Source: an uncultured Candidatus Saccharibacteria bacterium (GTDB lineage Bacteria; Patescibacteriota; Minisyncoccia; Sungbacterales; HO2-52-23). From it: a stretch of 44,640 nucleotides of DNA. Position 1 is the first letter of the stretch. Every line of letters starts with the position of its first letter. The stretch is from positions 1-44,640 of the forward strand of contig CAYJWH010000002.1 in the NCBI GenBank assembly GCA_964373875.1. The letters run 5' to 3'. The translations under genes and the position numbers were made by a program. This document shows, in pieces, positions 5,525 through 40,326 of the stretch. Under the pieces are notes generated by a model that was not told the DNA's origin, did not search any database, and saw only the letters and a program-made list of their open reading frames with translations.

Positions 5525-6628
5525 TTAAAGCCCTTCTTCCCGCAACTTTTCTATGGCTTCTTTTACTTTTTTGCTAATCCTTTTGGGTATATTTACTTTG
5601 ACTTCAATCAGCAGGTCTCCGCGCCCGTATCCGGAGGCGCTATAAGCTCCCTTGCCGCGAACTCTTAACACATCGCCCGGCTGTGTTCCTTCGGGAATTT
5701 TTAAACGGATATTGCCGTCAAGCGTTTCCACTTCTTTGGCTGTACCCAAAATAGCTTCGGTCAAAGGGACTGAAAGTTGCATCACAATATCATCGCCGTG
5801 GCGCAGAAATATCTCGTGCGAAAGCACACGGATTTTTATATATAAATCTCCGGGAGCGCTACCGGTTAGCGAGGCCTCGCCCTTGCCTGTCATTTTTAAA
5901 ATTTCGCCATCGCGTACTCCGCGCGGAACAAAGATCTCCAAATTTTCAGTAGATCGCACGACTCCCTGGCCCCGACATCCCGTACAGAGCGTTTCTGGCC
6001 TTTTGCCGGTTCCCACGCAATCCGGACAAGTAGAGACAGCCGTAAAAGAGCCCAAGAAAGTACGCTGTATTTTTTGTACATTGCCTTTTCCTTGGCAGGT
6101 TTTGCAGGACGTTTCTTTGGATCCCGGTTCTCCGCCAGAGCCCTTGCAGTGCTCGCACTGGATGAGTTTAGATATATCTACTGTTTCTTTGCCTCCAAAA
6201 ATTGATTCCTTGAATTGGATGGAAAGTTCGATTCTGATGTCTTTGCCTTTGCGGCCTCTAGTCTTGGCACGGGTACTGCCGCCAAATCCCGTACCCCCAA
6301 AAAAATCTTCAAAAACATCGCTAAAATCAAATTCTCCGCCCTCTCCCTCGGATCCAAAATCAAATTTAAATCCACCCGGCCACTCAAAGCCCCCTTGAAA
6401 CCCGCCACCGCCTCCTGCCCCCTCAAAGACTTGGCCAAATTGATCGTACTGCGACCTCTTGTTGTCGTCCGACAATACTCGATAAGCCTCGTTTACTTCT
6501 TTAAAACGCTCCCCATCTCCGCCTTTATCAGGGTGAAATTTATGCGCCAAAGCTCTATAAGCCTTTTTAATCTCTTCCTTGCTAGAGTTGCGGGCAACGC
6601 CAAGAGTTTTATAATAATCTTTGTTCAT
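5525..6628 (-). CDS. dnaJ: Chaperone DnaJ
   Basis: J-domain with HPD (KFHPDKG), a G/F-rich linker, and four CxxCxGxG repeats ([32 protein letters not shown]). Confidence 0.97.
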
Positions 6629-11130: not shown

Positions 11131-11162
11131 CGTCGCAAAATCCTGCTGGGGATTTTGCGACG
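11131..11162. repeat. 13-bp GC-rich hairpin; related copy at 36286-36308
   Basis: CGTCGCAAAATCC-TGCTGG-GGATTTTGCGACG. The core CAAAATCC(Y)GCTGGG(R)ATTTTG recurs in the rpoB upstream region. Confidence 0.7.
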
Positions 11163-11233
11163 CTTTCAGAGGCGCATTCCAAGGGAACCGCAAGCAAGTT
11201 TCCGTTTGCGCCTAAATTTGGTATATTTAAACA

Positions 11234-32353: not shown

Positions 32354-35300
32354 TTATTTAACCCTAGTTTTGGCCCGCATCGGTTTAATTTCTGCGACCG
32401 GTTTTCTATCTTCCACGCGCGGCTCTCCTTTCTTGATAATTTCCACATTCAGAGCCAGACCCTTAAGCTCATTCACCAGCACGTTGAAAGAGGCGGGAAT
32501 ATTCGGACTGCGAATCGGTTCGCCGTTAATAATTGCCTCATAAGTCGCGGATCGCCCCAAAACATCGTCTGATTTGATAGTAAGCATCTCCTGCAAAGTA
32601 TGCGCCGCCCCGTATCCTTCAAGGGCCCAAACCTCCATTTCGCCAAATCTCTGCCCTCCGAATTGAGCTTTTCCTCCAAGCGGCTGCTGGGTAATGAGCG
32701 AATAAGGACCGATGGAGCGCATGTGAATTTTGTCCTCCACCAGGTGGATAAGCTTCATTATGTACATGTACCCGACTGTAACTTTCTGGTTGAATTTCTC
32801 CCCGTTTCTTCCGTCAAAAAGCGTAACCTTTCCGTCGGAAGGAAGTCCGGCAGCCACAAGTTCCTTTTTTATTTCTTCCCCCAAAACCCCGGAGAGTGCC
32901 GGAGTTATGGCGCGGTATCCTAATTTTTTTGCCGCCCACCCAAGATGCGTTTCCAAAATTTGTCCAAGATTCATACGGGAAGCGACTCCCAATGGATTTA
33001 AAATCATTTCTACTGGTGTGCCATCTTCAAGGTGGGGCATTTCTTCTTCGGGAAGGATTTTGGCAACCACTCCTTTGTTTCCATGGCGTCCGGCAAGTTT
33101 GTCTCCCACGGCAATATTTCTAAATTGAGCTATATCCACCTGAACTTGCTTTATGACTCCGGCTTCCAACTTGTCTCCTTTTTCTCTGGAAAATACTTTG
33201 ACTGCCACCACCCTTCCACCTTTGCCGTGTGAAAGACGGAGCGAGGTATCTTTTACGTCGCGCGCTTTCTCACCGAAAATGGCCCGCAGAAGTTTTTCCT
33301 CCGGAGTAAGATCCGACTCTCCTTTGGGAGAAATTTTTCCAACTAGAATATCTCCTGACCGCACTTGGGCGCCAACGCGCACTATTCCGTCCTCGTCAAG
33401 ATTCTTCAGCTTTTCTTCCCCGACATTTGGAATGTCCGGAGTGGTTACTTCCGGACCGAGTTTGGTATCGCGAACATCAATGCTAAAATCCTCGATATGG
33501 ATCGAGCTATAGCGGTTGTCTTTAAGCAATCTTTCTGAAATGATAATGGCATCCTCGTAGTTAGCACCCGCCCAGGAAAGAAAAGCCACAAGTATATTTT
33601 GGCCAAGCGCCAGTTCTCCGCTATCAGTAGAAGAGCTGTCCGCCAAAAGATCGCCTTTTTTAACCTTTTGCCTCTTTTCGACAACCGGATGCTGGCGGAT
33701 AGCGGTAAAAGCATTGGTTCTTTGGAATTGCACAAGTTCGTATACATTGAGCCGTCCGCTTTTTCCCTTGACTACGATTTTTTTACCATCAACAACCTCG
33801 ACTACCCCGTCTTCTTCCGCCACTATGGTGCGTCCGGAATCTTTGGCCGCCCGATCTTCTACTCCCGTACCGACTAAGGGAGCTTGAGGCCGGACACATG
33901 GCACTGCTTGTCTTTGCATGTTTGAACCCATCATGGCGCGATTGGCGTCATCATGTTCAAGAAAAGGGATAAGACTGGTGGCAATACTGATGGCTTGCTG
34001 CGGAGTTACGTCCATATAATCAACTTCCTCACGCTTCACTACTCCCGGACTTCCGTGGATTCTCGCTTCAACTCGATCGTCAATAATATTTCCGTCTTTG
34101 TCGCTCGAAACTCCTGCGTGAGCAATCCGATACTGAATTTCCGCGGACGCGTCCAAATACTCCACTTCTCCGGTAAGTTTGCCATCTTTTACTTTGCGGT
34201 ACGGAGTTTCAATAAGGCCCAAAGCGTTGAGCCGCGCGTATCCCGCCAAGTGCCCGACAAGACCAATGTTTGGGCCTTCTGGAGTTTGAATAGGACAAAT
34301 TCTTCCATAGTGAGAGGGATGCACGTCGCGGACTTCAAAACCGGCTCGCTCTCTTTGCAGTCCTCCCGGACCCATCGCGGAAAGCCGGCGCTTATGCTCA
34401 AGTTCGGAAAGAGGATTTACTTGATCCATAAACTGCGACAATTGGGAAGAAGTAAAGAATTCCTTTACGGCGGCCATAAAAGGCCGGGCGTTGATCAACT
34501 GAGCAGGAGTAATCGTAAACGGGTCAAGGGTCGACATCCGATCTTTGATAATTCTTGCCATTCGTGCCACTCCGACTCGAAGTTTGTTTTGCAAAAGTTC
34601 TCCCACTCCCCTGACTCTTCGATTGCCGAGGTGATCAATATCGTCAGCCGGAGCATCTCCTAATTGGTTCAAACGCGCAATTTCCCTAAGCACGTTGATC
34701 AAGTCTTCCGCTTGAAGAACTCTTGAACTATTACCCTTAGAATTGGGTAGTTTTAGACGCTGGTTGAATTTATACCGTCCCACTTCTGCCAAATCGTATC
34801 GGTCAGAACTAAACATGGATTGGATGAGTGAGCGCGCGTTATCTACGGTGGCAAGGTCTCCGGGACGAATTCTCTTGTATATTTCAATAAAAGACTCATC
34901 AGCAGTATGGGAGGGATCTTTTTCCAATGTCTTTTTTATATAGGACATGCTGCCCGGATCAAGGTCTTTGAATGCTTCCAGAATTTTTTCTGAATGAGAT
35001 AAGCCGAAAATACGCAAAAGAGAAGTCGCGGGGATCTTTCTTTTTCGGTCGATTTTTACGTTAATCGAGTCGTCAAGATCTGTTTCAAACTCAAGCCAAG
35101 CCCCGCGATTGGGAATTATTTTTGCTCCGAAATATTTTCGTCCCCGTGCCGCGTAATTTGTAAAATAAACGCCGGAGGAACGAATAAGCTGTGACACCAC
35201 TACTCTCTCCACGCCGTTTACCACAAAAGTTCCGCGAGGCGTCATCAAAGGAAAATCGCCAAGATAAATTTCCTGCTCCTTTACTTCTTTTGTTTTTTTA

Positions 35301-35575
35301 TTGGTAAGCCGGGCTTTGATGCGAAGCGGCGCCTCATACGAGAGATTTTGCGACCTTGACTGGTTTTCAGTAAATTTCGGCTCGTCCAAATAAAAATCCA
35401 CAAATTCTAAAATCAGGCCTTCGCCGGCAAAATCTTCCTTGATCGGAGATACTTCACTAAAAAGTTCCCGAAGCCCTTTATCAAAAAAATAGCTGTAGGA
35501 GTTGAGTTGTACTTCTGCCAAGTTCGGGAGTCCGGTAATCTGCGGCTTATGTTGAGAAAAATATTTTTTTGCCAT
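32354..35575 (-). CDS. rpoB: DNA-directed RNA polymerase beta subunit
   Basis: 1073 aa with the rifampicin-cluster region [13 protein letters not shown], plus GRHGNKGV and [14 protein letters not shown]. Confidence 0.98.
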
Positions 35576-36171
35576 AATTGTCGAAATTTACGAGCTTGTA
35601 GCGAAATACCTTGTATAACAGGTTCGCTCGGCCGAAATGAAAATTGATATCTTCATTTCCTCCTCGCTGCCAGTTATAAATTTCGCTACAATTATGAGCA
35701 CCCCCTCCCTTACTCTACTGCTGGCGCACAATTAAAAAAAAGAAGTTTAGCTGATATTGCCGCTTACTTTATTATTGAAACAGGGTAGTAGAGTAAGGGC
35801 GGGGTAAATATTTTGATAAATATTTAATTACACCCAAAAAGTCCCTCTGCTATTAGGGCTTGCTTAAATTTTGCGATAAGTTATCTAGTCTCGCAAATAA
35901 TAGGCCTAGATTGGCTTAAATTTTTTAGGGCAGGCAGTTCACCCAAGGACAAGCCCCTCGGCTTCGCTCGGGACAAGCAAAACAATCAATGCTAGTATAA
36001 TCTTTATCCTGCCAAATGTCAACCCCATACTTTACGAGGTGGGCTTTTTCAAAGCTTATCTTAAGTTTAGGCGTTCATGAAAGGCATGGCAAGGGGTAGG
36101 TTATCCACAGGGCTCGCTTACCTGCTTTCTCGCGGACCTTTCTCTCTATTGTAATTTACGCCTCGGTCGAG

Positions 36172-36332
36172 CCGCCTCGCTCTTGAGGGACACTCGAAAT
36201 TGCGGCAGGCCGGTCTGTCAAGGCATTCCTTATTTGCTGTCCGCAGGACATACTGCCTTGACAGCTGGCGCAATTTTGCGTGAGTCCAAAATCCCGCTGG
36301 GAATTTTGTGATGCTCCCTCAAAGTGAGGCGG
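36172..36332. other. ~160-nt nested stem structure (candidate ncRNA or MITE-like element)
   Basis: CCGCCTC/GAGGCGG (36172-78 / 36326-32); TTGAGGGA/TCCCTCAA (36183-90 / 36315-22); AAATTGCG/CGCAATTT (36197-204 / 36269-76); CTGTCAAGGCA/TGCCTTGACAG (36215-25 / 36254-64); apex TGTCC-GCA-GGACA. Confidence 0.5.
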
Positions 36333-36388
36333 TGAGGGTTCCGTGGCGAAATTGCCCTCTTCCCACTTTTATGATAACCTAAAGTAAA

Positions 36389-36724
36389 GTGGGATTTATA
36401 ACCAAACTAGTTGCTAAAGCGATCCTCAACGGTGCCGCTTTATACGTATCCAGGCTTTATCTTCCCGGATTTATCTTTTTGGGCGGGTTTGAAAGCTTGG
36501 CAGTGGGTGCTGCCGTGCTTACGGTGCTGAATGCCTTTGTTCGCCCGGTCTTGCGGCTTATTTCCACCCCCCTGATATGGATCACCTTTGGACTATTTAA
36601 TATAATAATACACGTTTTGATCCTCTGGCTTGCCGACCAATTTTTAACCCAGCTTGCCATAACCGATCTCAAAACTTTATTTTTTGCGTCGATTATCATT
36701 GCGGTTGCTAACACGTTTTTTTAA
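36389..36724 (+). CDS. Phage-holin-4-like (YvlD/DUF360-type) membrane protein
   Basis: 111 aa with a GTG start. LPG......F..A...A..L..LNAFVRP.L.L...P......GLF..I...L.LWL resembles that family from memory. Confidence 0.6.
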   Translation: MGFITKLVAKAILNGAALYVSRLYLPGFIFLGGFESLAVGAAVLTVLNAFVRPVLRLISTPLIWITFGLFNIIIHVLILWLADQFLTQLAITDLKTLFFASIIIAVANTFF

Positions 36725-40242: not shown

Positions 40243-40326
40243 GGGGACGTGGTGGAATGGCAGACACGTACGGTTCAGGGCCGTATGCCGCAAGGCGTGA
40301 GAGTTCAACTCTCTCCGTCCCCACCA
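40243..40326 (+). tRNA. tRNA-Leu (anticodon CAG), CCA encoded
   Basis: Acceptor GGGGACG/CGTCCCC; anticodon stem TACGG/CCGTA with loop TTCAGGG; long variable arm TGCCGCAAGGCGT; T arm GAGAG-TTCAACT-CTCTC; discriminator A plus CCA. Confidence 0.9.

Follow-up and report, generated by a model that had tools for sequence, protein, structure and literature searches.

What accounts for the long and hairpin-rich gap that precedes the RNA polymerase genes of an uncultured Candidatus Saccharibacteria bacterium? We have analysed a stretch of 44,640 nt (the window) from contig C2 of its genome assembly (G000; 714 kb in 53 contigs, 45% GC, 97% complete), in which the 813 nt from 35576 to 36388 separate rpoB, on the minus strand, from a divergently oriented gene for a holin-like membrane protein. 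An earlier note on this DNA had singled out the gap, and had suggested that it might be a cluster of palindromic repeats, one or more non-coding RNAs (ncRNAs) or a long regulatory leader for rpoBC. We find that the promoter and leader region itself is ordinary, and that its richness in hairpins comes from three scattered repeat families. The gap is probably a divergent control region, lying between rpoBC on the minus strand and the holin-like gene and secG on the plus strand, that has been colonised by dispersed hairpin repeats.

The structure in the gap is real. There is no open reading frame (ORF) of 60 aa or more, and a search for arm pairs recovered all of the inverted repeats that had been described. 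The 12-nt arms GTAGCGAAAT/ATTTCGCTAC (35596–35607 and 35680–35691) are perfect, GAAATGAAAAT/ATCTTCATTTC forms an inverted repeat at 35634–35659, and a pair of 18-nt arms (35702–35719 and 35787–35804) is 94% complementary. Next to the latter is the AT-rich palindrome TAAATATTT-TGAT-AAATATTTA (35805–35826), a further arm pair, to which no specific family was assigned. A nested rod extends from 36172 to 36332, within which three arm pairs were recovered, and on the plus strand the hairpin TCCCACTTT/AAAGTGGGA (36361–36394), unique in the genome, spans the GTG start codon of the holin-like gene. Compared with shuffled sequence both the gap and the rod are far more stable than chance. For the gap z = −7.3 (plus) and −5.9 (minus) against dinucleotide shuffles, none of 20 shuffles equalling it, while for the rod z = −5.4 (plus) and −4.9 (minus), with none of 200 shuffles equal. 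Searches of Rfam gave nothing meaningful in window or gap; no known RNA was found in the window at the gathering threshold, and at E ≤ 10 over 35450–36500 there was no match to 6S RNA, a leader or a riboswitch, the best E-value being 0.2.

Where does all this structure come from? Three repeat families, with members elsewhere in this genome and in related ones, contribute about 470 of the 813 nt, so that the suggestion of a palindrome cluster resembling bacterial interspersed mosaic elements (BIMEs) was essentially right. Module B (35565–35607 and 35680–35813) lies at the rpoB end of the gap, family A (35608–35679) is nested within it, and family C (36153–36353) lies towards the holin-like gene. 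Copies were sought with blastn and nhmmer over the whole genome; since the assembly is fragmented the copy numbers given here for this genome are lower bounds. Only 35827–36152 and 36354–36388 are unique in the genome, and a profile of 11-mer copy number agrees with the three-repeat composition. The earlier note had itself named dispersed repeats as the finding that would count against an ncRNA gene peculiar to this locus, and copies of dispersed repeats are what the sub-elements are.

The relatives of this organism by rpoB are Patescibacteria metagenome-assembled genomes labelled Giovannonibacteria, Moranbacteria, Parcubacteria and similar, the closest of which (L009) has a RpoB of 84% protein identity. 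The order of genes around the gap is the same in L009, with holin-like, secG and solute-binding-protein neighbours. Its orthologous gap is only 325–376 nt, depending upon the start taken for the holin-like gene, and lacks A, B and C altogether. What the two have in common is a core at about 35827–36152. The insertions have roughly doubled the length of the gap in this lineage, their ends in the gap being inferred from paralogues and from a relative of a different genus. Three kinds of non-autonomous, hairpin-forming repeat would have inserted into this ancestral promoter and leader core.

The core contains two predicted sigma70-type promoters for rpoBC, assigned from consensus and conservation. 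P1 (35994–36022, minus strand) has the form TTGACA-17-TATACT, with 11 of 12 consensus matches, and its hexamers and spacing are identical in L009 at 5767–5795. P2 (36064–36092, minus strand) is the weaker of the two, TTGCCA-17-TAAACT; its counterparts are TTGCCT-17-TATAGT in L009 and TTGACA-17-TACACT in a further relative, L010. Both have hexamers at a 17-nt spacing, kept in orthologous position, and their distances from the rpoB ATG downstream are about 420 and 490 nt. The TATAAT box previously noted on the plus strand at 35996–36001 is present. It is the palindromic overlap of the −10 hexamer of P1 on the minus strand, and no usable −35 element was found for it on the plus strand. Module B and family A would lie inside a 412-nt 5′ untranslated region (UTR) of rpoBC, and be co-transcribed from P1 and P2. 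Family C is located between the promoters and the holin-like gene. The local effect of the repeats would be at the level of RNA, through stable hairpins in the rpoB leader and before the holin-like gene, and not through an independent regulatory RNA gene.

Family C is the notable one of the three. The copy in the gap (36153–36353, plus strand) is a rod of about 190–200 nt, and covariance model R1 scores 181.7 bits for 36153–36342. It comprises an outer stem, a CGAG/CGAG internal loop, a middle stem, an apical module and a 3′ side hairpin. The apical module (36216–36263, plus strand) is a TGTCAAGG/CCTTGACA stem around a CC-GCA-GG triloop hairpin, and is nearly invariant among copies. The side hairpin (36286–36308, plus strand) has a conserved CGCTGG loop, and six of its eight pairs show compensatory changes. 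Its reported resemblance to a hairpin elsewhere in the window holds good, for the sequence at 11131–11165 is a remnant of family C itself. The pairing is strongly supported by covariation. In 14 copies from four genomes, aligned with MAFFT and folded with RNAalifold, 31 of 52 predicted pairs have compensatory changes. In 17 sequences fitted to the covariance model 95.3% of cells are paired and 35 of the 52 pairs have double changes, a level reached by none of 500 shuffles, and slid registers attain at most 46%; the independent MAFFT/RNAalifold result agrees. Of 34 copies, 33 fold more stably as the modelled strand than as the complement, the difference averaging 7.7 kcal/mol (p = 3e-9), so that family C is under selection to fold as one particular single strand.

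A sister family of 150–160 nt, with a weaker model score, shares GGTCGAGG, GAAAAC, GCATGGTC, the CGCTGG loop and CCGAGGGAACC. In this a plain GC hairpin replaces the TGTCAAGG module. An example is found in the same genome (G000:C4:21403–21558), and there are many loci in genomes G001, G004, G007 and G021. Three copies of the sister family contain GAUGAG...CGAAG, reminiscent of the hammerhead ribozyme; the C3/U4 and A15.1 positions of its core are missing from them, Rfam gives no match, and we judge the similarity coincidental. A search of the literature on the sequence words and on hairpin repeats of Patescibacteria found nothing relevant, and family C is apparently an undescribed structured element, unusually well conserved.

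How is family C distributed? This genome has seven full and two partial copies. Apart from that in the gap they are located at C1:25173, C13:9655, C7:4576, C18:11254, C27:4633 and C8:11459, with partial copies at C8:6550 and C2:49136. One copy (G000:C8:6640–6725) has a hairpin insert of about 60 nt in its 3′ arm, a further case of nesting and single-copy in the genome, and abuts an assembly gap of Ns. In the 36 genomes of the same taxonomic family that served as our comparison set, the covariance model finds family C in 13, with 0–9 copies each. The positions are non-orthologous, sites occupied in other genera being empty here and vice versa. Gain and loss can be seen within a genus, where three sites differ between genomes G002 and G022. 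One is a clean presence or absence of 181 nt between the stop codon of an rpsB-like gene and the start codon of tsf; of the other two, one has a remnant of about 35 nt and one the side hairpin alone. Such polymorphism at orthologous sites is a classical property of miniature inverted-repeat transposable elements (MITEs). There is also a bias in orientation. In 25 of 33 copies the neighbouring gene 3′ of the element is encoded on the other strand, its stop codon often only 2–20 nt away, and the modelled strand is usually antisense to its neighbours, the copy in the window belonging to the co-oriented minority.

These properties lead us to favour family C as a mobile, strand-specific hairpin element of the single-stranded DNA (ssDNA) type, with action as an RNA as the alternative. 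The preference for ssDNA comes from the orientation bias with respect to flanking genes, the insertions into hairpin loops, the GNA triloops and tandem G•A motifs, and the abundance of HUH enzymes. GNA triloops and tandem G•A motifs are very stable in DNA. The repeats would spread as single-stranded hairpins, and the likely agents would be the HUH/Y1 enzymes resembling the transposases associated with repetitive extragenic palindromes (REPs), known as RAYTs, which occur almost throughout this bacterial family, or some other enzyme that acts in trans. Genes for Y1 enzymes occur in 31 of the 36 related genomes, and the present genome has two that are RAYT-like (PF01797; C3:26617–26922 and C21:2922–3158), each with its own 23–25-nt REP before, inside and after it (ACTATAGAGGTTTAGCCTCTATAGT and TGATTGAAGTCGGACTTCAATCA).

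A number of observations weigh against this account, and against the gap as a colonised control region more generally. No transposase is linked to any of families A, B and C, and none adjoins any copy of family C. The REPs around the two RAYT genes show no sequence relationship to the three families, and the presence of Y1 genes does not track that of family C; on these grounds we reject a RAYT link. For family C neither a target-site duplication nor conserved termini could be found, the sole clean pair of filled and empty sites being so diverged that a duplication is not readable there. The outer-stem sequences differ completely between copies, and there are no conserved terminal inverted repeats; the termini are the most variable part and the core the most conserved, whereas a classical MITE shows the opposite pattern. 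Both the preference for one strand and the conservation of loops (CGCUGG, the GCA triloop and GCAUGGUC) could also be those of a functional RNA. Lastly, P1 and P2 are consensus matches backed by conservation, not mapped starts of transcription.

Other candidate origins were also examined. No TnpB was found in this genome (other DDE transposase families were not searched for), and an origin in TnpB and omega-RNA is rejected, and the genome has only a sub-threshold fragment of a reverse transcriptase. An origin in phages or plasmids is rejected in the absence of matches in phages, plasmids or viral contigs. Motifs like AGCGAGCG are found on both flanks of several copies of family C; we set the GAGCGAAGC/AGCGAGCG flank motifs aside, their enrichment in the genome being only 2–3-fold.

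Could family C and its sister be multi-copy, independently transcribed small RNAs, with loops that bind a protein or RNA partner and variable stems that are structural, the copy in the gap being one such RNA gene instead of inert mobile DNA? The very strong covariation and the conserved loops are as expected for such RNAs, and the CGAG/CGAG tandem G•A internal loop recurs at the base of the rod. In 33 of 34 copies G–U pairing makes one strand the better folder, contrary to what local strand composition would predict. Moreover the favoured strand is usually antisense to the flanking genes, so that a promoter of its own would be needed. However, neither a promoter nor a terminator consensus was found flanking the copies, and the copy between rpsB and tsf leaves no room for its own transcription signals. 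The lack of synteny, the gain and loss between congeneric genomes and the restriction to 13 of 36 related genomes also tell against it. We consider independently transcribed RNAs unlikely, and retain the mobile hairpin element as the better description.

The rpoB side of the gap raises a different possibility, that the whole 813 nt is an ancestral structured leader of rpoBC, akin to an attenuator or riboswitch. With P1 and P2 some 420–490 nt from the ATG the left half of the gap would be mostly 5′ UTR, and in the closest relatives there is a leader of about 200 nt with conserved blocks. The ancestral leader itself (35827–35987, minus strand) is unique in the genome and partly conserved with L009, 35829–35937 being 69% identical to L009:5825–5931 with conserved blocks in the alignment. 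But the leaders of the relatives are without A and B, family C is situated upstream of the promoters, repeats that also occur at unrelated loci make up the structured parts, and Rfam offers no leader or riboswitch match (best E-value 0.2, as noted above). Here the leader is predicted to run to about 412 nt, as against about 200 nt in L009, a difference that matches the inserted sequence of A and B. The short gap of L009 already largely refutes an ancestral leader that takes up the whole gap, and we think it quite improbable. The part of the earlier suggestion that stands is a long rpoBC leader, in that two conserved promoters put A and B in the predicted 5′ UTR; as for the structure, most of it is due to the inserted repeats and not to an ancestral fold.

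Within the leader there is a smaller candidate for insertion. The mini-hairpin CGAGCGAAGCCGAGGG (35948–35978, minus strand) is of the 16-nt GCGAAGC type, flanked by an 8-nt direct repeat GCTTGTCC (minus strand), and is the sole copy in the window. It corresponds to an alignment gap in L009, and because it is absent from that closest relative it may be a tiny insertion with target duplication.

Module B is itself composite, with copies on contigs C3 and C8 and solo halves elsewhere in the genome. Its long-range hairpin (35702–35804, minus strand) has 18-bp arms and a 67-nt loop. Pairing is kept in the copies at C3:11817–11943 and C8:16752–16890 while the arms differ in sequence (CACCAATCT/AGATTGGTG in C8). 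The other half, B-right, has a layout of GGGG, TGCTCATAATT, a small hairpin (hp2) and then AGCTCYAAATTTTCGRAAAYTATGGC, about 70 nt in all. At rpoB it is in two pieces on the minus strand. The distal piece (35680–35701) contains the 5′ arm of hp2 and TGCTCATAATT, and aligns with the copies on C3 and C8 and in relatives; the proximal piece (35565–35607) contains the 3′ arm of hp2, AAGCTCGTAAATTTCGACAATT and ATGGCAAAAAA, which is the rpoB start. Further copies of B-right are found at C3:11916–11995, standing alone, at C8:16702–16774, at the start of rpsI, and at C20:411–478. It ends exactly at a start codon in rpoB, rpsI and the C20 gene here, and in rpmA and recA of relatives (L275, L276, L277), among other genes in different genomes. 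No Shine–Dalgarno sequence is present in B-right, and it looks like a portable 5′ UTR with start-codon context, serving different, highly expressed genes. The C8 copy of module B sits between rplM and rpsI. From the ATG of B-right the rpsI (S9) ORF (G000:C8:16185–16712) gains about 50 extra N-terminal residues, with Lys and Glu abundant among them; its true start is uncertain. On C3 the module is flanked by the 3′ ends of two convergent genes, one of them for a cysteine desulfurase, and ATGGCAAAAAA there opens a frame of only nine codons. With a copy that precedes no real gene, the likeness before rpoB is one of repeat homology and not of a gene-specific leader. The halves are also repeated separately in relatives, with up to 17 and 21 matches in two genomes.

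Family A (35608–35679, minus strand) is a 72-nt nested hairpin in the loop of hp2. In the C8 paralogue hp2 is uninterrupted (GTAGCGAAATTTATTTCGCTAC), and the comparison indicates that family A is nested in module B by an insertion that split hp2. This accounts for the GTAGCGAAAT/ATTTCGCTAC pair previously described and for the GAAATGAA hairpin within it. Family A has 10–11 copies in this genome, and a match in 13 of the 36 genomes of the taxonomic family. Its stems covary among copies, and in 15 of 20 of them the somewhat better fold belongs to the strand that is rpoB-sense in the gap (p about 0.05).

How far does the apical module of family C extend beyond this lineage? It is absent from 400 other Patescibacteria genomes searched, and is found in at least 120 metagenome contigs from many habitats, with GC contents of 0.34–0.72; the hosts include GC-rich contigs from soil, peat, gut and bioreactor metagenomes. 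These contigs are compositionally and environmentally unrelated to this lineage, and no taxonomic relation is claimed. Among the matches listed the module is mostly at the apex of long, unrelated palindromic stems; by a strict ungapped count, which undercounts bulged stems, 25 of the 67 distinct matches listed have at least 10 further pairs. They are several distinct repeat families, which the full model R1 barely scores, and 20 of the loci gave nothing in Rfam. No family of neighbouring genes is dominant among 80 loci, though tyrosine integrases are present at six of them and there are one rve integrase and RadC. Family C and its sister could, though we think it less likely than not, form a hitherto unrecognised class of structured element with strand specificity, working as RNA or as ssDNA, in which the apical module is either a horizontally spreading unit that lands in the apexes of hairpins or the docking site of a near-universal factor.

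The apical stem contains a perfect TTGACA/TGTCAA duplex, which is the exact −35 consensus, the element recognised by the primary sigma factor. This coincidence suggested that hairpins with the TGTCAAGG/CCTTGACA core might be ssDNA promoters or priming sites of mobile elements, of the Frpo/ssi type. Masai and Arai are said to have described in 1997 the Frpo/ssi single-stranded DNA promoters of conjugative plasmids. RadC belongs to the leading-region setting of Frpo. The passages of PMC11541004 that concern Frpo present it as a folded single-strand promoter, and do not extend to this point about RadC. In keeping with such a role the fold is strand-specific, the −35 consensus is held within the duplex of the core, and some metagenome copies adjoin tyrosine integrases, the rve integrase and RadC. 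Against it, a TATAAT-like hexamer 16–18 nt after TTGACA is no more frequent than in controls, the copies in Patescibacteria lie among housekeeping genes, and there are no matches in plasmid and phage collections or viral contigs. Lacking a −10 element to accompany the −35, an Frpo-type promoter is rejected, and the broader reading as ssDNA promoter or priming site is highly improbable.

The same duplex bears on the proposal that the rod is a 6S-type RNA, a mimic of an open promoter that binds polymerase. The rod-like shape and length of about 190 nt, the TTGACA/TGTCAA duplex in the apical stem and a structural discontinuity 17 nt after TTGACA, at the junction with the side hairpin, all recall 6S RNA. 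The 6S-like option raised in the earlier note nevertheless fails and we give it very little credence, for there is no match to RF00013 and its relatives even at E ≤ 10, a large central bubble is missing from the consensus structure, TTGACA is not followed by a −10-like sequence either in family C or in its metagenome relatives, and the rod is multi-copy (7–9 copies per genome), non-syntenic, absent from most relatives and gained or lost between congeneric genomes.

The promoter region has one further conserved element. A perfect DnaA-box-like 9-mer TTATCCACA (TGTGGATAA in the rpoB sense) lies on the plus strand at 36101–36109, 8 nt upstream of the −35 of P2, and is kept in L009 and L010. A perfect box is found within 450 nt upstream of rpoB in 14 of 68 loci of relatives, nearly always in the same orientation; the background elsewhere in those loci is 0.007 per 450 nt, so that the rate upstream of rpoBC is about 28-fold higher. 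This genome has 37 perfect copies of TTATCCACA where about 5 are expected, mostly single and next to promoters, typically 8–20 nt upstream of TTGACA hexamers (contigs C1–C38). Such a distribution points to a widespread, promoter-associated regulatory site. With dnaA on another contig and no cluster of boxes in the gap, the box at 36101–36109 is read as a putative transcription-factor site rather than part of an origin. That the gap is the chromosomal replication origin, as its perfect box, the adjoining AT-rich stretch and the switch in gene orientation might suggest, is scarcely credible when dnaA is on contig C10, the gap holds a single box, no 600-nt span of the genome has more than three (with up to one mismatch), the 37 perfect boxes are dispersed, most of them alone and next to a promoter, and the same single box before the rpoBC promoters of many relatives fits a transcription-factor site.

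The genes bordering the gap complete its description. The minus-strand rpoB gene (32354–35575) encodes 1073 aa with all the RpoB domains, and rpoC lies downstream. The plus-strand holin-like gene, with its GTG at 36389, encodes a four-helix membrane protein of 111 aa (PF04020), and is followed by secG and a family-5 solute-binding protein. As had been remarked, rplJ–rplL is not upstream of rpoB, and the L7/L12 domain (PF00542) was not found anywhere in the 97%-complete assembly. ARAGORN found only a tRNA-Leu, at 40243.

Our analysis urges caution in naming ncRNAs from the statistics of folding alone, for mobile hairpins can accrete on an ordinary promoter region of an essential operon. It also indicates that an ultra-small genome of 714 kb tolerates, and perhaps uses, structured repeats in its rpoBC leader and ribosomal-protein operons. 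The conserved box before rpoBC promoters across Patescibacteria hints at a coupling between the control of replication and the synthesis of RNA polymerase. Family C, in which 35 pairs covary, one strand is preferred, loops are conserved and the core is common to distant organisms, is a candidate for a new class of structured mobile element or RNA.

How do these elements compare with known systems? The box resembles a single site at which DnaA acts as a transcription factor, being perfect, just upstream of a −35 element and kept before rpoBC in relatives; it differs in being enriched beside many promoters genome-wide, and for this reason a factor other than DnaA could recognise it. Family C shares with 6S RNA a rod of about 190 nt, and differs in being multi-copy and patchy, without central bubble or Rfam match. 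With Frpo/ssi it shares long strand-specific hairpins that hold TTGACA in a duplex, but it is chromosomal, among housekeeping genes, and has neither a −10 element nor similarity to plasmids or phages. The REP/BIME and REPIN–RAYT systems of E. coli and Pseudomonas are closer, as short palindromic repeats in intergenic mosaic clusters that form hairpins with compensatory changes, in a genome with RAYT-like Y1 genes; yet A, B and C are complex elements of 70–200 nt, unlike the 25-nt REPs at the RAYT genes, and they do not flank those genes. The Correia/NEMIS, ERIC and RUP elements and the Rickettsia palindromic elements are likewise non-autonomous, hairpin-forming and polymorphic between close relatives, lie in or near operons and undergo nested insertion. 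From these MITE-like elements family C is set apart by the lack of conserved terminal inverted repeats or a detectable target duplication, and by a conserved core with variable termini, an asymmetric side hairpin and a strong preference for a single strand.

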